Shown in pieces: positions 10,661-30,097 of a stretch of DNA of 64,000 nt. A program made the position numbers and the translations under genes. Every line of letters begins with the position of its first letter. Position 1 is the stretch's first letter. The notes beneath the pieces were generated by a model. That model searched no databases. It saw only the letters and a program-made list of their open reading frames with translations, and was not told the origin of the DNA. The stretch comes from Elsinoe ampelina (Eukaryota), in contig ML992501.1 in the NCBI GenBank assembly GCA_010093995.1, positions 1,018,632-1,082,631 of the forward strand, given 5' to 3'.

Positions 10661-12895
10661 CTACTCCTGCTGCAAAGTCCATCTCCTCTTCGGAGTGCGA
10701 TCTCTCTCATAGTTTCCAGATGGCGCGCTGCCCCATAGTCCTTTCTGCGACAACTTCCTGCCGATGCTGCTTGGCATCTGAGCCGTCGTGCCAGGTAGCT
10801 CGCTGACCGAGTCACGCATCTCGCGGCTTGGACTGTCGGTCGTGGTAGAGATGCGAGGGACGCTCGTGGGATCCTCGCTCTTCGGTCGTGTCGGGACAAG
10901 CGGTGCCCCGAGACGCGAGTCGGGGACGTACGAGATACCGAGCTTATTATCGGGTTCCACGCCGGACAGGTCGACGGGATCGCGCACTGGACTGGATTGT
11001 CTATCACCAGGCATCTCCTTCTCAGCCCGTGCTTCGGGTAAAGGTGGAGTGCTAGGCATCCACAAGCCAGTCGCGGAGGTAGCAGAAGAGACAGAGCCGG
11101 AGCGCTGTGGCGGGCCCATGTTCTGCATGGATAGACGCCTAATGCTACCCAGTGCTGCGCTCATGTTGTGAGGGCGTGGATGCTCAGTGACAGCCCAATT
11201 GACCTCTAGTGGCGAGCCGGCTGCTGCGTGAGAGGACAACAACGTGCTACGCCTGCGTGACTCTGGCACGGTTTTTGACGCTGCGAGACTTGGAGATGAC
11301 GGCGTTGGCGTGGCCGGTCGTGTTGGATCCGCACCAGGTCGCAGATGTTCTGAAGATGCAACAATCTTCATGTCATACTTCTGAGACAAGCCCGTGCTGA
11401 TCGAGCCATTCCGTCTTGCTCCTCGGTCGACGGTGGGTGAGGAAGTTGGAGAAGCGATTTGTGGCATGTCGTGATGCGGCTCATGTCCATTCACCCTCTC
11501 TTCCTTCCGCACAGCCATGGTCATTGATGCCATGCCCACGTCGAGCAGGACCGGCTGCTCGGTCAGTGCCCCAATAAGTGCGTTGCATCCGGCGCCGTGG
11601 GTAACAAGGACTACCACAATATCTTCGTCAGCGTCGTGATGGTCGTGATCCTCGACTCCGGGAACAGCTTCATGGTCGTCAGGAATTTGACCACTTTCGT
11701 TTTCACCATACCAATCGATCAAGTGGTTGAGGCCCTTCCGGAAGCGCTTGTGCATGGCTGACCATTCCTCACCATATTCTCCTCCGTCGCCCCAGAGAAG
11801 GGGTGGGCGCATGCTATCCCACTGATAATCGACGTCAACGCAAGCGTCCCGTGCGTGCGCAACGTAGCCTCTCGGAATAGGCTCTACTGGTGAAATGGCA
11901 TAATTGGGGTTTGGCGGGTTGTAGCCCAGGTCAGGAAGAACCTCGCTCGATACAGCACGCTGAAGTACGGGCCGACCAAAAGGGGAAACACGGCCACTGC
12001 TGTAGCTACTCGTCCTGTCTCTCCCAGGTAGTGCTTGTGACAGACTCTTCATATCCAGAGGACCATCCGCAAGGTGTGGTGCAGAAGTAGGCTCTGGACC
12101 TTTGCCGCCGGTCCAAAGATTGCCTTGGGATTGCTTGCCGCCTGCGCCAGGTGTGGAAGGGCCGGGGGAAAGTGAGAACGACGCCATGTCCTCCCCTCTC
12201 CGTAGCAAATCCGCCTTGGCTCCTGCCACCATCATCGTGCTGTTTGGTGGAGGTGTGATGAGATCAAAGTAATCCGGAGACAGCCATTCCCCAAGGTAGG
12301 CATCGATCCGTAGCGAGGTCTTGCCTTGCTTCGGCTGATGCTTCAGGCTCTTGATCAAGTGACTCCTGGCTGCCACTGATGCAGCTGTCGCATCTACAGC
12401 ATGTAGACGAGGGGACGGCTGGAATTCGCGCGAAGAACGTGGTTTTGAGTCGCTCCGTGCCCGTCCTGCTCGAACGCTTTGGTATTGGGAAATGCCTGCG
12501 CTGATCCCTATTCCAGTCTGTACACACCTCTGAAATGGCGAGGAATGGACGTAGATTTTATGCTTCCTTTTTCTGGTTGGCGGCTTCACCTCTGGCGCGA
12601 CTGAATCATGGCTGCCATTGCCGACAGTCAGCTCATGGGGTTCCGCCGGTACGTCGCCGGTCAAAGAGTCTTCGCGGGCATGGAGTAGACTGGCGATTCT
12701 AAGGCCAAGTGCTCGAGACTGTGTCCAGCCGCCATAGGTCAAGGGGGGATCGTAAGGTGTTGGAGAGCTGAGATGCCAGCTCTTGTCTGCAGCATCGAGT
12801 CTTGCGCCGTGTCTGGGGTCTCGTCAGGTGGTGGCTTCGTTGCTGAGCGGGTAGACTTACCTGGCGATGATTATGACTGCTGGCTGCTTACCCAT
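10661..12895 (-). CDS. Histidine-phosphatase / phosphoglycerate-mutase family protein; exons 12895-12861 and 12812-10661
   Basis: Spliced start MGKQPAVIIIAR|HGARLDAAD...YDPPLTYGGW gives the RHG motif; also HSSPFQRCVQT, LGEWLSPDYF, LVTHGAGCNALIG. Confidence 0.87.
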
Positions 12896-19522: not shown

Positions 19523-19782
19523 TGTCAACCGAGGTATAAGCTGGAGCGCCAAGAAGGACCCTGATTCAGTTTATCCCCTGGTGGAACTAAATACTTATCT
19601 ACTACTCCACTAATTTATGATCAAATTAGATAGTTATTGTCTTAATCTACTACTATTAAGGAGTTCTTTTAATTTAGCTATCTTTTAGTATACTAGGTTA
19701 AGTATTTATATAGTTATAATCTACCTTATTTTAGTAGTTTAGGTAGTAATTAATCCTTTTTCCTCCCCTACACAAGTTAATA
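19523..19782 (+). repeat. 5' LTR, copia family 1
   Basis: Direct repeat of 29838-30097; starts TGTCAAC. Confidence 0.92.
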
Positions 19783-22155: not shown

Positions 22156-22555
22156 NNNNNNNNNNNNNNNNNNNNNNNNNNNNNNNNNNNNNNNNNNNNN
22201 NNNNNNNNNNNNNNNNNNNNNNNNNNNNNNNNNNNNNNNNNNNNNNNNNNNNNNNNNNNNNNNNNNNNNNNNNNNNNNNNNNNNNNNNNNNNNNNNNNNN
22301 NNNNNNNNNNNNNNNNNNNNNNNNNNNNNNNNNNNNNNNNNNNNNNNNNNNNNNNNNNNNNNNNNNNNNNNNNNNNNNNNNNNNNNNNNNNNNNNNNNNN
22401 NNNNNNNNNNNNNNNNNNNNNNNNNNNNNNNNNNNNNNNNNNNNNNNNNNNNNNNNNNNNNNNNNNNNNNNNNNNNNNNNNNNNNNNNNNNNNNNNNNNN
22501 NNNNNNNNNNNNNNNNNNNNNNNNNNNNNNNNNNNNNNNNNNNNNNNNNNNNNNN
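22156..22555. other. Assembly gap (400 N)
   Basis: Run of N. Confidence 1.
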
Positions 22556-22703
22556 CTTACTACTATCTATAGTAGTATAGCTATCTCCTCTACTACTAGA
22601 AGGAGATAAAGCTAAAGGAGATAAGATAGAAGTTTAGACTAAAGAGGTAGTTAAAGCTTAGCCTAAGTAACTCCCTTAAAGAATTACTATAAGGTTAGCT
22701 AAT

Positions 22704-23166
22704 TGTCACGAACTGTCTAAACATAGCCTACGCTAGTAGTCTAAGCTAAGCTAAGAACGAGGTAGTTCTACTTCTATAGTAGTATAGCACTAAGGTAAGA
22801 GTCGGAGAAGGTATGTCTTATAGATAATAAAGTACAATTAGATAGTATTACAAAGGCTAGCCTTAGTAATACTAGTGTTTACTATCTAGATAAGGTTAAC
22901 TATAGTACTTACATAAGGTAAGGACTACTCCTATATATATGTGTTCTTTACTACGTACTTTGTGTGCTCTATATACTCCGTAGTAAGAGTTAGAGGCAAT
23001 ATAGAGTATACGTCCGCTAGTAACCTATATACTCTATAGTCCCTAGGGTAGAGCTACTAGAGAAGATAGAGAACCGGGCAAACGTCGGGCTAGATTACAT
23101 AATAACCTTAGTAGTTTAATTAGTCCTAACATCTCTACGCTTTAGCTATCCTACTAGTTTGTAATA
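22704..23166 (-). repeat. 3' LTR of the Gypsy element
   Basis: Direct repeat of 29265-29727. Confidence 0.92.
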
Positions 23167-23240
23167 TTACTCTCCTCTCTTAATCGAGTTGTTCTAACGA
23201 GTAAGTATTCTTTCTTATCCTTGCGCGCTATATACTAAAC

Positions 23241-23800
23241 ATGCCTTCTAGTTATTAAAGGCATAGTAAATCTAGTACATCTATATAAAAGAACCTCTCG
23301 GAGTTTATTAAATTATTTAGAACTAATATGCTATAAGCTTACTCTTGTTATAAGTTAAAAGAGCTAGACTATAAAGTCTATATTTAGTTAGGTATTTATA
23401 GCTAGTATATTGTAAGTAACTACTCGGGTTATAATATTTAAGTAACAAAATCGAAATAGTAGCGTCTCTAGTCTAAGTACATTCATTTACAAAAGGAATT
23501 AGTTATAGCTAAGGCTACTAGAAAGGAAGCTAAAGAAGCTTATAAAAAGGCAAAAGAGGCTTATTAAAGAGCTATAGGTAATAAGCTTTACCTACGTAAA
23601 GAGATATAAAAGTTAAAGGACAAGGTAGAGGAAGTAATCTCTCTAGAAGAGACTCGTATTTAAGTCTTAGAGTAGGAGGAAATACTATTATTAGTAGATC
23701 CCGTCCTACTATAGGACTAGCAATTATTTATGCCTAACTCTAATTAGAGTTCCTTACTTAGTAACGATTAAGGTACTTCTATTAGTTAAGTAATCTTCCT
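23241..23800 (+). pseudogene. RIP-inactivated antisense ORF inside the Gypsy element: Zn2Cys6-like motif plus coiled coil
   Basis: Frame starts at ATG 23241; TAY codons at C-x2-C-x6-C-x8-C-x2-C-x7-C spacing (TGY>TAY is the canonical RIP change); followed by a K/E/A-rich heptad region. 3' end approximate. Confidence 0.7.
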
Positions 23801-26800
23801 TAGGCATTCTCGTTTTTATTTAGTATTTAGAGTACTAGGTCTGTCTAGTTGGTTTACTTAGGATAGGTTCTCGATCTAGTAATCTAGAATTACTTATAAG
23901 GTAAGGTGCTCCTCTAGTTCCTATATTACTTTACTATACTAATGTCTCTTCTAGTAAATAAGATAGTAGCGTTTTTCTTTTATAAGTTTATAATGTAAAA
24001 CTCTTTTAATCTTATACTATAGCTCCTATGTTTCTTTATCTAGTTCGATAGATCCGGGTATAGTATTCTATAGTGCTTTCTCTAGTAGTAATATATAAAA
24101 GACTAGATAGATCCTTATATGTCTTAGTAGTTCTAGTTTGTATATGTTCTTATTTTTCTTTTCTAGAATCTTAAAGAGTCCTAGTTTAGTATAGTTAAGT
24201 TTCTTACTTAGTTGTTTCGTTTTAATGTTTTTACTAAGGAAGTAAACTTTCTCTCTCTTCTATAGAATTAGTCTTGCAATTCTCTTCTAGTTAGTAAATT
24301 CTACTATTCTTTGTAATATAAATGCTATATTATAGTATAGCTAGTTATGTAGTTTCTTAATATTAGCTACTAGTATATTAGCGTCCTTAGATATTAGCTT
24401 AATTCTAAGTATATTATAGTATAGATCTAGGTATATTCTATAGTTTACGTAGAATAGTAAAATTCTATTTACTAACTTTCTATTGTTAATAGCGAGCTCT
24501 ACAAGTAGTAATAGTATCGCCTATAAGTCTTACTTATAGTTTAGGTAGCATTATAGGTACTACTCTAGTACTTAATTTACCTATTTAGTTTGTCTATCTA
24601 TTTATAGATAAAAGAAGGTTAATAGCTTATGTTTAACTCCTAGTAGGTCTATAAATAATTACTAGAATTGTAATATAAATAGCTTATTTCTATTAGTTAT
24701 TAAGTCTCGTAGTACTCTATGTTATAAAATAATTATTCGAAGGAAGGTAAAGACTATATCCTCGGTAGTTACTATTGTCTTATATAGTACAAAGTAGTAA
24801 TACTTTATAAACCTATCTACTAGAACTAGAATACTATTATACTTTATACCTATAAGAGGTTCTTCTAATAGTAGTAAAGGTTCTATAAAGTCTATCGTAA
24901 CTAATTACTATAGTTTATCTAGTAGTAGCAAGAGTTATAATAAGCTATATAGCTTATGTCGTAAGTACTTAGACTTATAGTATATATTACATGTAGTAAT
25001 ATATATCTTAATATCGTTTCGGAGTTCTTTCTATAGGTAGTTTTATGTAATAAGTTTAATAGTCTTATCGATCCTACTATACCCTACTATTAGGTTATTA
25101 TAGTACATTTAAATAACTTCTTTCTTCTATTCTTATATAAGCTCCTAGGTAAGGCTATATAACTACTTTACCTTTAGGTGCTTATAGACTAGAGCGCTGT
25201 CTTACTACTTTAGTATAGAGGCCTCTATTATTGTTATATTCTTTAAGTAATCTAGTTGTTAGCTAAGAGCGTCTACTCTACTATTCTCTAATCCCTTAAT
25301 ATAGTAGATCTAAAAGTTATAGCTTGTAAGTGTTTCTAACTATCGAACCTATTATCTATTAAGAACCTTAGTTGTTATTTAATATAATAGGTTCTTATAG
25401 TCGGTATAGACTTATATAGGTAAGGTTGTTTCTTCTAGGTATACTCTCTATTTGCGAAATACCTCTATAATTATAAGTAACTCTTTATTATATATATCGT
25501 AGTTAAGTTTAGGTCTAGTTATTTTTCGTAAGTAGTATATAATTAAGTAGTATTATTCTTCCGCGTCCTTCTATACTAGATACGCTTCTATTATAAAGTC
25601 TAAGGCATCTATTTCTAGTAGTGCTTATTAGTCTAGGTCGAAGAGTGCTAGGATAGGTACTATTATAAGTCTAAGCTTTAGCTTCTTAAAGGCCTACCTA
25701 CATTTCTTATTAAAGACAAATCTAGTTTCTTTCTTTATAAGGTTAGATATTAGTATAGCTACCTTAGAGAATCCTTTAACAAACTTACAGTAGTAGTTAA
25801 AGAACTCTAGTAGCGCTTAAACCTCTCTAACTATAGTAGGTTCTAGCTAGTTATTTACTAACTTAATCTTTTTTAAGTTAGGTCCGATGCTATTAGTAGA
25901 TATAATATAGTCTAGAAATTATATCTTATATTTATAAAACTTATACTTAGAGAGCTTTACTAGTAGGTCTTTTTCTTTTAGTTTCTATAGTACTTTATAA
26001 ATATGTCCTATATGTTTATTATATATCTTTAAGAAGATAATAATATTATCTAAATATACTAAGATAAAGTTGTTAAGGTATTCTTATAGAGTATTATTAA
26101 TTAACTCTTAGAAGGTTATAGGAGCGTTAGTTAACCTAAAGGGCATAATAAGGTACTTATATAGACTCTATTACGTCCTAAAAGCCGTCTTCTACTCCTT
26201 ACTCTCCTTTATTTATACTTAATAATAGGTATCCCTAATGTTAATTACGGTAAACTATTTAGCTCTAAGTAGTTAGTCTTAAAGTTTGTTAATCCTTAGT
26301 AGGGGATAGTAATTCTTCCTAGTAAGTGTATTAAGTTTCTAGTAATTAATATATATTTGTAATGTCTTATCCTTTTTAGGTATAAAAAGCACTCCGTGTA
26401 TAATAGGTAATTTTAATAGTTATATAAATCCTTTAAGTAAGTACTTATCGATATAGTCCTTAAGAACGTCCTTCTCTTATTTCGATAGTAGTATAAGACC
26501 TTAATAGTATATTAGAGATTTACTCTCTTTAAAGAGTATTTTATAATTCTATAGTTTATGTTAGAGTAAGGCTATAATACCTTCTCTTTCTTTAAATAAG
26601 TCCTTAAAGTCTTTATATTCCGGCGGAAGTGCTTAATTACTTACACTAGCGATAGCTCTAACTATTAGTTATACCTATACTGTCCTTATAGTTAGTATCC
26701 GTAGAGCTAATTATGCTCTCTATATTCTATAATTACACTTAGGGAATTTAAGTGTTTCTTTAATCTAGTCTATGTCTAGATTATGTTATTAAAGCTAGTC

Positions 26801-29264
26801 TATACTAAGTACTATATTATACTATATATCTACTATATCGATTAATTGTTTTTCTATATATATTTTAATTTTAATTATAACATTTTATAGTTCCTAAGTA
26901 ACTTTCCTATCCTTCCCTATAGAGGTTCTATCCGCTATAGTAAGTAGGTAAGGTAACTTCTTCTAGTGTTAATAAGGTTTAAGCTAATTAGTAACTATTA
27001 TAGAGACGTAGCTATAGTTAGCTCCTGAATCTATTATTGCTCTTACCTTACTCTCTTATATTTCGACTTTTAGTATAAAGTAGTTTAACGTATAGATCTT
27101 TATTATATTAAGGCTTTAGCTAGTGTTATTGTCTTACCTTATTAGGCAACAACTAGCTAGTTTTTTGTTATTATAGCTCCTTAGATAAGTAGCTAATTCC
27201 TTCCTATACGTATCTACTATTAGTACTATATCTATTAGGCAAGTTATGTTTTGTTACTATTTAATATAGTAAGGTAAACTTCTAGCGCCTAAGTCCCTTA
27301 GTAACTATAAAGTCTAATAATTCCTTACTAGTTGTACTAAGTAGTATTATACACCTATATTAGTATAACTATTCCTTCCGGGTATAGCTAGGCATTAGTA
27401 TTAAAGACAAAAATAAGTTATATAGATTCGTCTTATAGTGTCCTATTCTAGTAGTAGATGTATATTATTATATAATTCCTCTATATCCCTATAAGGTATA
27501 CTTTAAGTTGTCTACCTAGTAGTAGTACGTCGTTATTGTCGTTGTTGTTATTAAATAAGTTCTTATCTATGTTGTTATATTATAGTTGTTCGGTGTATTC
27601 TTCGTTATATTCCTCTTTATCGCTACTGCCCCTAGTATAGTTATAGTTAGTAAGGCTATACTAAGTATATTCTCTTACTTAGCTATAGGGGATAGTACTA
27701 CCTATTTCGATTATTAAGAAGTCCGTAGTGTATTTAAGACTAATAGTGTCTTCTCTAAGTACGTTATATAAGTAGATAGTATAGTACTATTTATAATCTA
27801 GATTTGTATATTTCTAGAGTAATATATAATATACCTTTCCTTATAGTACGCTATAAGGGCTAAAGGTAAGACTACTATATTATTATATAGTACTTGTATT
27901 CTAATACTTTGTCTTAATAATTGTATATTAGTAATTGTCGCTAACTACCTTCTAAGGTTAGTTACTATTACTACTAATTATAGAGAGCCCTTCTAGGTCG
28001 GGTTTCTAGTCTAGCTATTTCGTTAGTTACCTACGCTTAGATAGCTTATATAGGAACTAACTAGATCTCTGCTTGTCTAATAAGTAAATATAATAAGAGT
28101 TATTATAATATACTATCTATAATAGCGTTATATATTAGCTTTGTTGTTTACTATCGGTCGTAGAGATATTAAGTATAACATCTAGAGAAGATTCTACTAC
28201 CTCTCGAGTTATCGTAGACTTCTTCTATATTTCCTTACCTACGCTAAAGATCGTTAGGTCTTCTATAGTAGTGTTAGCCTTTTTCTCTACTAGCCCGGCA
28301 ACTATTATATATAATCTATTAGCTAGTGCCTCTTGTCGGTAGTCCCTAGCCCGATGTCTAGGTCTTTTATACTTAAAATATAAATTGTCTTATCTATACT
28401 TCTCTCTCTCTTTTCTACTAAGGAACTTTCCTCTACGGCTATAGCCTCGTACCTATAAGAGGCAGCCTTTGCATATAGTATTAAGTTCTATAGAGTCTCT
28501 ATAGTTTCGAGAGAAACGCGTATATCTAGTGTTTACCTTATATCCTCTATAACGTTCTATATGTCGTTTATAAAGTCTATTATTAATAACAATTGTAGTA
28601 TCTACTAGTTCCTAAAGGCTATTAGGTAGCTCGGGTATTATTTAGTCTTTAACTAAGTTACTTAGTCCTTAATAAAATACTAAATGTTTAGCACTATTAT
28701 CCTAATCTAGATATATTACAAGCTATTAGAACTAGGAATAGTACTAGGCTATAGACCTACGTTGTTATAGTTATTAAATCTTTGTTATAGTAATACATTC
28801 CTTATTAGATACGTTAAAGACTTACTTAATCTTTGCCTAGAAGATACTAAAGCTCTTAAAGATAGCCTTTATATCTAGGCCTAGTTATCTATCTAGGTAG
28901 CTACTTATATAAGGCTCGAACTACCCGAAGGTAGCGCCTTTAAGGTATATCCTAGTATAGAGGACCTTTACTACGTCGTTAGCGTACTTATCTCTCTCTA
29001 GGGTAAAGAAGGCTTTAAGTTAAATAAGGAAGTGCCTTAAGTAGGCGTAGTCCCTATAGAAGAGTTCTACTTCTAACTTAGGCTTACTCTGTCCTTCTAT
29101 ACTAAAAGACCTTCTATGTTTACCCGAGATTAAACTAGTAGTAGACATGTCGTTAATAGTAAGCTTTCCTAGCTTACTAGCAATTAAAGATACTAATAGT
29201 AACTTAGAGCAAGAGTTACTTATTAACCTCGTAGCATACTATACTATAGTAAGGGTAGTTAAAA

Positions 29265-29727
29265 TGTTACGAACTGTCTAAATATAGCCTATACTAGTAG
29301 TCTAAGCTAAGCTAAGAACAAGGTAGTTCTACTTCTATAGTAGTATAGTACTAAGGTAAGAGTTAAAGAAGGTATATCTTATAGATAATAAAGTACAATT
29401 AGATAGTATTATAAAGGCTAGCCTTAGTAATACTAGTGTTTGCTATCTAGACGAGGTTAACTATAGTACTTACATAAGGTAAGGACTACTCCTATATATA
29501 TATGTTCTTTACTATGTACTTTATATACTCTATGTACTTCGTAGCGAAAGTCGGGGACAATATAGAGTATACGTCCGCTAGTAACCTACGTGCTCTATAG
29601 TCCCTAGAGTAGAGCCGCTAGAGAAGATAGAGAACTAAGTAAACGTCGGGCTAGGTTACGTAATAACCTTAGTAGTTTAATTAGTCCTAACATCCCTACG
29701 CTTTAGCTATCCTACTAGTTCGTAACA
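29265..29727 (-). repeat. 5' LTR of the Gypsy element
   Basis: Direct repeat of 22704-23166; perfect 10-bp inverted termini. Confidence 0.92.
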
Positions 29728-29837: not shown

Positions 29838-30097
29838 TATTAACTAAGGTATAAGCTAAAGCGCTAAGAAGGACCCTAATTTAGTTTATCCCCTAGTAGA
29901 ACTAAATACTTATCTACTACTCTACTAATTTATAATCAAATTAGATAGTTATTGTCTTAATCTGCTACTATTAAGGAGTTCTTTTGATTTAGCTATCTTT
30001 TAGTACACTAGGTTAAGTATTTATGTAGTTACAATCTACCTCATTTTGGTGGTTTAGGCAGTAATTAATCCTTTTTCCTCCCCCACACAAGTCAACA
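29838..30097 (+). repeat. 3' LTR, copia family 1
   Basis: Direct repeat of 19523-19782; ends GTCAACA followed by the TSD. Confidence 0.92.

Follow-up and report, generated by a model that had tools for sequence, protein, structure and literature searches.

A probable RIP-destroyed antisense gene for a Zn2Cys6-like, coiled-coil protein in a chromovirus of Elsinoe ampelina

Introduction

Can the DNA between the integrase chromodomain and the 3' long terminal repeat (LTR) of a fungal Gypsy retrotransposon hold a gene of its own, read from the opposite strand? The question is raised by a stretch of 64,000 nucleotides from Elsinoe ampelina (contig ML992501.1, positions 1,018,632 to 1,082,631; called the window below), in which a minus-strand Gypsy element has the look of DNA altered by repeat-induced point mutation (RIP). 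An initial annotation, made from the letters alone, had proposed that the plus strand from an ATG at position 23241 once encoded a small zinc-cluster protein with a coiled coil, whose six Cys codons were turned into Tyr codons by RIP. Our analysis makes it likely that positions 23241 to 23801 of the plus strand are a RIP-destroyed copy of a genuine accessory gene belonging to a lineage of ascomycete chromoviruses.

Gag and pol are generally regarded as the only genes of an LTR retrotransposon, and accessory regulators as a hallmark of complex retroviruses. Among the latter, HTLV-1 HBZ and HIV-1 ASP are antisense genes whose transcription from the 3' LTR has been shown, and HBZ is a dimerising regulator of the basic leucine zipper class. 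In fungi, Zhao et al. (2011, Virology 417:248; cited in PMC8365987) described an antisense gene, brtn, from Botrytis cinerea, where it belongs to Boty-like Gypsy elements. The sections of PMC4227169 that we covered describe a Boty-like element with gag-pol, CHROMO and 'brtn-106', and brtn is missing from the current B05.10 annotation according to a passage by Porquier et al. (PMC8365987).

Results

The antisense frame and its intact homologues

The frame and its parts lie in the window as follows.

23241 to 23801, plus strand: probable RIP-inactivated antisense accessory gene, 187 codons with 18 in-frame TAA or TAG stops
23340 to 23432, plus strand: region of the six-Cys cluster; TAY has replaced each Cys codon, TAT the His codon and TAG-TTA the Arg-Ser of the KVH(V/I)RSG motif
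23454 to 23699, plus strand: predicted long helix or coiled-coil segment, aligned to helix 75-156 of the AlphaFold2 model of the homologue P0001
23724 to 23760, plus strand: relic of a C-terminal Leu-x-Leu-Ser-Pro-x-Thr-Trp motif; the Trp codon (23745), Trp being present in 97% of the family, is now TAG

The frame from the ATG at 23241 opens Ala-Tyr-Ser-Cys-Tyr, and its codons read as the initial annotation had quoted them, with Tyr codons (TAY) exactly at the places it had named (23340, 23349, 23370, 23397, 23406 and 23430; spacing x2, x6, x8, x2, x7). The K/E/A-rich segment that it had placed after the cluster is also present, as a stretch without stops at about 23478-23565. Taken alone, the spacing of Cys or Tyr is no better than chance: the 33-residue segment holds eight Tyr and one Cys, from which six Tyr had been picked, and a Gal4 spacing relaxed to Cys or Tyr turned up at six sites when the AT-rich DNA of the window (14,201 bp) was translated in six frames, and the exact spacing once. 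Nor is the antisense frame singled out by its stops. Between 23166 and 23870 it contains 21, all of them TAA or TAG and none TGA, and the counts in three of the six frames over that interval are 21, 19 and 21. A Pfam search of the six frames of 23165-23870, read with X, returned nothing except PPR_1 at an E-value of 1.4. What lifts the observation above chance is the homology of the frame to intact proteins, not the Tyr spacing or the density of stops.

This homology was seen when the frame, with X at its stops, was compared by phmmer with 1.84 billion representative proteins. Eight matches were obtained at E <=1e-3 (best 2.0e-14), to proteins of 175-211 amino acids, each aligned as a single stretch across query residues 8-155, over which no frameshift has to be assumed. 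All eight homologues contain the pattern C-x2-C-x6-C-x8-C-x2-C-x6-8-C, with K/R-V/A-H-V/I-R-S-G between the third and fourth Cys. In their alignment with the window frame (A1), the six invariant Cys columns and the His column all read Tyr in the window, and Arg-Ser has become TAG-TTA. The proposal that RIP had turned six Cys into Tyr is supported by the homologues, eight of eight carrying Cys at the six TAY columns. Of the 33 residues guessed by undoing RIP, 21 (counted by hand) are equal to those of P0001, the closest intact homologue, and these include the six Cys and K-V-H-I-R-S-G; the rest differ.

The direction of the changes was tested by comparing window codons, column by column, with 123 members of the family. 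Among 97 conserved columns, 35 were identical in the window and 62 differed. Undoing C>T or G>A changes explained 25 of the 62 differing columns, compared with 11 and 9 for two transversion controls and 1 for the opposite direction. Each of the six window codons at the Cys columns, which are 98-100% conserved among the 123 proteins, is explained by G>A. The same decay of Cys to Tyr was found in three short database members from other sources (P0138, P0145 and P0146), and short matches of 55-123 amino acids look truncated or decayed. Since every Cys codon is now a Tyr codon and 18 stops interrupt the frame, the copy in the window makes nothing.

The gene has a fixed place in related elements

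A profile built from the eight homologues retrieved at least 133 proteins at E <=1e-3, many of them encoded on contigs of 6-7.4 kb. Members with organism names came from Bathelium mastoideum, Sporormia fimetaria and Cladosporium fusiforme, all of which we take to be Dothideomycetes.

The genomic position of the family was tested at 61 loci obtained from a scan of metagenome contigs. At 50 of them the strand opposite the accessory match carries an integrase-chromodomain match, whose start is -178 to +277 bp from where the accessory match ends. Eight of the remaining 11 have less than 300 bp of room, and three are negative with room, two of these being one internally deleted element; the gene thus lies tail-to-tail with a chromodomain integrase at 50 of 53 testable loci. 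Where minus-strand open reading frames (ORFs) adjoin the match, Chromo stands at their C-terminus in 25 of 25, together with SH3_Tf2-1, rve, RNase H and RVT_1. The start codon of the accessory gene lies 60-130 bp inside the LTR edge in the relatives. Homologues in the same antisense position, which the initial annotation had looked to as a check, are therefore present, and in the window as in its relatives the gene is an opposite-strand ORF between pol and the 3' LTR.

Three further observations concern the elements that carry the gene. Nine contigs (L005, L013, L015, L019, L020, L026, L030, L033 and L039) begin and end with an exact direct repeat of 123-174 bp; these element-sized contigs look like circular assemblies through a collapsed LTR, so that each would represent one LTR plus the internal region. 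An internally deleted LTR element of 2.4 kb (L007:9551-11964, and the same in L006:4673-7086), with LTRs that are 95% identical, retains an intact antisense ORF of 175 amino acids (9965-10492 of L007) and only an N-terminal piece of gag (11128-11595, minus strand). When similarity in pol (last 300 amino acids) was set against similarity in the accessory protein for the 21 loci with both genes intact (L001 to L044), close pairs agreed, and the nearest neighbour was identical for the two genes at 10 of the 21 loci. Deeper pairs did not: L005 and L033, for instance, share 74% in pol and 37% in the accessory protein, which suggests that element lineages have exchanged a 3' module.

Intact copies encode a protein under purifying selection

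The frame was open across the whole match at 38 of the 61 loci. A complete ORF from Met to stop was present at 35, beginning Met-Pro and spanning 152-213 codons, with one of 290. Ratios of non-synonymous to synonymous change (dN/dS) were calculated by NG86 for 33 distinct ORFs, of which 95 of 528 pairs were usable (dS 0.05-2). The median was 0.34; all 95 usable pairs lay below 1 and 93 below 0.5, and the closest pairs gave 0.03-0.19. Medians in four other frames were 1.2-1.65, and the mirrored opposite frame gave 0.41, a value expected because it shares third (wobble) positions with the coding frame. Intact copies therefore encode a protein of about 150-210 amino acids, and this protein is under purifying selection. 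Longer or fused forms of it were not found, which is weak evidence.

The six-Cys domain is predicted to resemble Zn2Cys6 clusters

The spacing C-x2-C-x6-C-x8-C-x2-C-x5-9-C is intact at 46 of the 61 loci and agrees with the Zn2Cys6 spacing C-x2-C-x6-C-x5-12-C-x2-C-x6-8-C. The domain is basic, and the sequence KVHVRSG between the third and fourth Cys is almost invariant. The AlphaFold2 model of P0001 (123 sequences) had a mean predicted local distance difference test score (pLDDT) of 81.5, and consists of a helix at residues 17-31, the Cys-rich domain at 39-69, a second helix at 75-156 and a less confident tail; a model of the domain only (38 sequences) reached a pLDDT of 88.0.

Comparison of the models with solved structures pointed, at weak E-values, to zinc clusters. 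No Foldseek match in the PDB was obtained at E <=1e-3, and the first 25 ranks for the whole model were all Zn2Cys6 DNA-binding domains, namely those of Gal4 (1d66, 3coq), Leu3 (2er8), Hap1, Pho7, Put3, Ppr1, Cep3, Lac9 and AlcR. For the domain model, Zn2Cys6 domains made up 18 of the 20 Foldseek matches listed, with Ppr1 superposed at a root mean square deviation (rmsd) of 1.2 A over 29 columns. VIA-align placed the domain model on Lac9 (1cld; rmsd 1.8 A over 32 of 33 residues), and only four chains reached a Z of 2; with the whole model it returned long coiled coils only (Z 7.0-7.6). A profile search of PDB sequences also gave Lac9 as the best match (E 0.055), with the six Cys aligned and two additional residues in the Cys3-Cys4 spacer of the family. 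In the ESM Atlas, clusters named Zn(2)-C6 or Zn_clus made up most of the neighbours by structure, and these count as leads only. From these models, the six-Cys domain is predicted to fold like a Zn2Cys6 binuclear cluster.

The long helix is predicted to dimerise

Modelling of the protein as a homodimer gave a score of 0.49-0.50 in three runs, compared with at best 0.20 among three controls. At least 85% of contacts agreed between runs, the pLDDT of the partner was at least 80, and residues 71-144 were paired such that residue i faces about residue 218-i (residue 95 with 123, 102 with 116 and 109 with 109). The mark used to call a dimer was reached by 21 of 30 one-chain pairs and 0 of 23 single chains in a microbial benchmark, and by 17 of 29 pairs and 0 of 30 single chains in eukaryotes; only one of seven eukaryotic pairs without an older solved relative reached it, so that the pass may stem from the model's memory of coiled coils. 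With that limit, the helix of about 80 residues is predicted to form an antiparallel homodimer, an arrangement in which each end of a rod would bear one cluster.

Gal4 itself dimerises through a short, parallel coiled coil. The suggestion of a Gal4-like dimerisation helix thus survives in that a long helix predicted to dimerise does follow the cluster, and differs in that the helix is about 80 residues long and is predicted to pair antiparallel. Beyond the helix, the family keeps the pattern Leu-Ser-Pro-x-Thr-Trp ... Asp-Phe-Trp in a short tail rich in Trp, Phe and acidic residues, which resembles acidic activation motifs.

The element in the window

The remaining parts of the element are listed below.

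22704 to 23166, minus strand: 3' LTR, about 463 bp, TGTCAC...GTAATA on the plus strand (BLAST repeat, ends read by eye)
23170 to 23183, minus strand: polypurine tract, a pyrimidine run on the plus strand adjoining the 3' LTR (read from sequence)
23184 to 23240, plus strand: spacer from the polypurine tract to the antisense ATG, with a decayed counterpart of a hairpin (loop now TTC, near 23192) and CTATATAC at 23228-23235
23900 to 27172, minus strand: RIP-degraded pol, protease to integrase plus chromodomain (tblastn and Pfam)
29265 to 29727, minus strand: 5' LTR (BLAST repeat, ends read by eye)

The GC content is 0.20-0.34 across 19.5-30.1 kb of the window and 0.5-0.58 in the flanking gene-rich DNA, and in this the interval resembles repeats mutated by RIP. 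A direct repeat (22690-23164 and 29250-29725; 90.3% identity over 476 bp by BLAST) frames the minus-strand Gypsy element. Read by eye, the LTRs run from 22704 to 23166 and from 29265 to 29727, with termini TGTYAC...GTAAYA and possible 5-bp target duplications, CTAAT and CTAAA. GTAACA is the LTR terminus of relatives at the same place as the end of the window 3' LTR, and relatives show the same arrangement of an LTR end followed by a pyrimidine run; the spacer of the window copy was compared with theirs by eye only.

The intact pol of the metagenome locus L004 aligned by tblastn to window 27172-23900 at 47.9% identity across residues 60-1150 of 1165. One minus-strand frame, with X at stops, matched the Pfam families RVT_1, RT_RNaseH, Integrase_H2C2 and SH3_Tf2-1, and a chromodomain-like stretch ends at about 23875-23900. 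The Pfam Chromo model found no match in the RIP-degraded window copy, a region that still aligns to the chromodomain-bearing pol of L004. With protease, reverse transcriptase, RNase H and integrase in that order, a C-terminal chromodomain and flanking LTRs, the element is by its sequence a chromovirus. The extra DNA that the initial annotation had seen between the chromodomain and the polypurine tract is present, and amounts to about 650-700 bp.

A second direct repeat (19532-19780 and 29847-30095, 92% over 249 bp) brackets the chromovirus and a further 2.9 kb of AT-rich DNA, and the chromovirus possibly sits inside another repeat. Positions 22156-22555, just beyond the 3' LTR, are a run of 400 N. 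In two DNA sequencing runs of one sample, 5378 and 3403 contig pieces matched window 22600-24400 at >=80%, with differences that were nearly all transitions; judged by these pieces, the family is highly repeated and RIP-diversified in the organism of those runs. The six Tyr codons are not among the 40 of 238 variant rows listed, which has no bearing on TGY elsewhere. The stretch was present in no run recorded as RNA; of two presumed RNA runs compared with it, one gave no match and the other a single contig, which covered LTR positions 22702-22779 only.

DNA beside the gene

The relatives have a hairpin directly inside the polypurine tract, in which covarying stems of 5-8 bp enclose a conserved TCC(Y) loop. 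Examples are given here.

L005, 185-206: hairpin
L020, 4631-4652: hairpin
L037, 229-250: hairpin (24 more loci besides these three)
Window, about 23184-23203: counterpart of the hairpin

The loop is 19-23 nucleotides from the LTR-end anchor at 24 of 29 distinct loci; the hairpin set leaves out L002 and L022 and, for L014 and L017, uses their sites near the anchor instead. The 18 hairpins with a 4-nucleotide loop had 88.2% of cells paired compared with 60.9% after shuffling, and 40 compensatory cells compared with 12.4 (0 of 500 shuffles), and the nine with a 3-nucleotide loop had 84.7% paired compared with 69.6% (0 of 500), these paired shares being biased upward because a stem-seeking script chose the windows. 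Slid controls of the 4-nucleotide-loop hairpins were 26-44% paired. The G:U pairs of the hairpin fall on the strand of the antisense gene.

The LTR regions of eight circular contigs (L005, L013, L015, L019, L020, L026, L030 and L039) are otherwise diverged and have two words in common, CTATATAC in eight of eight and the palindrome TCACGTGA in seven of eight. In the window, CTATATAC occurs in the LTR (22968-22976) and again at 23228-23235, 6 bp before the antisense ATG. TATA-like words are found in the spacer between LTR and start in several subfamilies of relatives; the antisense mRNA may begin in the 3' LTR, as the initial annotation suggested. One subfamily conserves the word GTCATCATGGC, which carries an out-of-frame ATG and lies about 15 nucleotides before the Met-Pro start in L017, L030, L035, L037, L038, L043 and others; it may represent either a short ORF ahead of the gene or an element of the start site.

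Discussion

The window frame is best explained as the wreck of a real gene, one whose intact relatives occupy the same antisense position in chromodomain elements and evolve under purifying selection. What the product does is much less certain. We propose tentatively, largely from the models, that it could be an element-encoded, dimeric nucleic-acid-binding regulator of the element. The place of the gene is shown: it runs antisense to pol and tail-to-tail with it, with the integrase chromodomain on one side and the polypurine tract on the other. Its protein is predicted to run from an N-terminal helix through a basic six-Cys Zn2Cys6-like domain and a homodimerising helix of 80 residues to a tail rich in Trp, Phe and acidic residues. 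The dimer would most likely bind the element's own DNA, and the acidic-aromatic tail would promote transcription of the element. A fuller version of this proposal, which we consider doubtful, is that of a minimal Gal4-like factor encoded antisense in ascomycete chromoviruses, which would bind LTR DNA or the polypurine tract hairpin and switch the element, with the gene and the LTR end exchanged as a module and deletion derivatives depending on the factor in trans.

Several results weigh against these proposals. The gathering cut-off of the Pfam family Zn_clus (PF00172; 21 bits) was reached by none of the 123 members; matches at E <=1 were obtained for 16 of them (best E 0.036), and three of eight representatives scored 9.7-12.1 bits. 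All Foldseek matches had E-values of at least 0.45, and the VIA Z for Lac9 was just 2.0. Gal4-type clusters usually have a proline between the third and fourth Cys, and the corresponding spacer of the family is without it. The pairing predicted for the dimer is antiparallel, and thus unlike that of Gal4. Spacings of CGG pairs common to the LTR regions of the eight circular contigs occurred in at most three of the eight, compared with a shuffle mean of 3.8. Distances in pol and in the accessory protein are poorly correlated (Spearman 0.15; 187 of 2000 permutations as high), and given this poor agreement at depth strict co-inheritance is not claimed. Finally, the relatives are mostly on metagenome contigs, with organism names on three members only. 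Because Zn2Cys6 folds are the nearest and the Pfam cut-off is not reached, the domain is named Zn2Cys6-like here and is not assigned to the Pfam family. The small antisense zinc-cluster protein of the initial annotation thus holds as far as the six-Cys cluster and the long coiled coil of the family go, and its membership of the Gal4-type Pfam family does not.

Of the other functions considered, action on RNA is the strongest contender, although we think it unlikely. The antisense protein might, in the manner of Rev or CERV, recognise the polypurine tract hairpin and serve export, packaging or priming of genomic RNA, or act on its own mRNA. The conserved, covarying hairpin beside the polypurine tract and the lack of conserved CGG pairs in the LTRs would suit such a role, and CERV of Cer1, which is needed for genomic RNA export according to the parts of PMC10309623 covered, offers a precedent; on the other hand, every one of the closest solved folds is a Zn2Cys6 domain that binds DNA, and the paired share of the hairpin is inflated by stem-seeking selection. 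Rather less probable is a protein that restrains the element, a DNA-binding dimer serving as repressor or copy-number control at the LTR or at host sites. Its small size (just 150-210 amino acids, without the large regulatory domain of host zinc-cluster factors, no longer forms having been found) is a weak point in favour of restraint. The intact gene kept by the 2.4-kb deleted element fits a trans-acting product, and so an activator equally well, and the conserved acidic-aromatic tail, which resembles activation motifs, speaks against restraint.

A host zinc-cluster gene lying beside element insertions, or captured once by the window copy, would accord with the label Zn(2)-C6 fungal-type protein that one source gives to the Sporormia fimetaria member (P0108), but is very improbable: a neighbouring host gene is contradicted by the constant orientation and the narrow gap (-178 to +277 bp) at 50 of 53 testable loci from many contigs, by the place of the gene inside the LTR pair and by the many contigs that are element-sized. 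Chance, in which six Tyr codons of TA-rich, RIP-made, non-coding 3' DNA happen to fit a loose motif, would accommodate the abundance of such spacings, the choice of six Tyr from eight, the unexceptional stop density and the want of a real Pfam match in any frame, and is refuted by the homology (E 2e-14 over 145 residues to intact proteins), the alignment with Cys at six columns, dN/dS and the conserved position, which leave it a negligible probability.

Comparison with known systems helps to place the gene. Like Gal4-type factors (PF00172; Gal4, Lac9, Leu3, Hap1, Ppr1 and Put3), which also supply the nearest folds, the family has six Cys within the same range of spacings, in a basic domain followed by a helix that is predicted to dimerise. 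It differs from them in its scores below the Pfam cut-off, in the 8-residue KVHVRSG spacer without Pro, in an extra N-terminal helix, in the length (80 residues) and predicted antiparallel pairing of its helix, and in being a retrotransposon-encoded protein of fewer than 215 amino acids without a middle-homology domain. HBZ and ASP are likewise minus-strand protein genes located at a retroelement's 3' end; host kingdom and DNA-binding fold are different there.

Among transposable elements, brtn is the nearest parallel: it too, as described in the sources cited above and compared here by description only, is an additional antisense-strand gene of a fungal chromodomain Gypsy element. Judging by its name, 'brtn-106' may be shorter than the 150-210 amino acids of the present family, and the name brtn is on no match among the members found by the profile search; the accessory gene is possibly identical with brtn. 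Vicient and Casacuberta (2020, PMC7264820) treat extra ORFs (aORFs) of plant LTR retrotransposons, some of them antisense, which lie between pol and the 3' LTR; a zinc-cluster product is not named in the parts of that paper covered. CERV of the Gypsy-type element Cer1 of Caenorhabditis elegans, as far as PMC10309623 was covered, is likewise an accessory protein of an LTR retrotransposon, nuclear, and regulates the RNA of its own element; unlike the present gene, and again by description only, it is made from a spliced sense mRNA. The literature searched, which included two surveys of fungal elements (PMC3248453 and PMC2864245) and had the brtn paper outside its scope, yielded no account of a zinc-cluster, coiled-coil antisense product of fungal Gypsy elements. 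Antisense extra genes of LTR retrotransposons as such are already known.

For annotation, the finding means that such proteins are now labelled as hypothetical or as host zinc-cluster factors, and that ORF callers are blind to the gene in RIP-affected genomes, where it can be recovered by its Cys-to-Tyr signature. For the biology of these elements, many fungal chromoviruses carry, antisense to pol, a conserved protein under purifying selection that has the look of a DNA-binding dimer and is without a Pfam family. If this protein regulates its element, it would be a testable trans-acting factor in the activity of fungal transposons and in their silencing by RIP or heterochromatin, and the gene, if the proposal is true, would be the counterpart in fungal retrotransposons of the regulatory genes of retroviruses.

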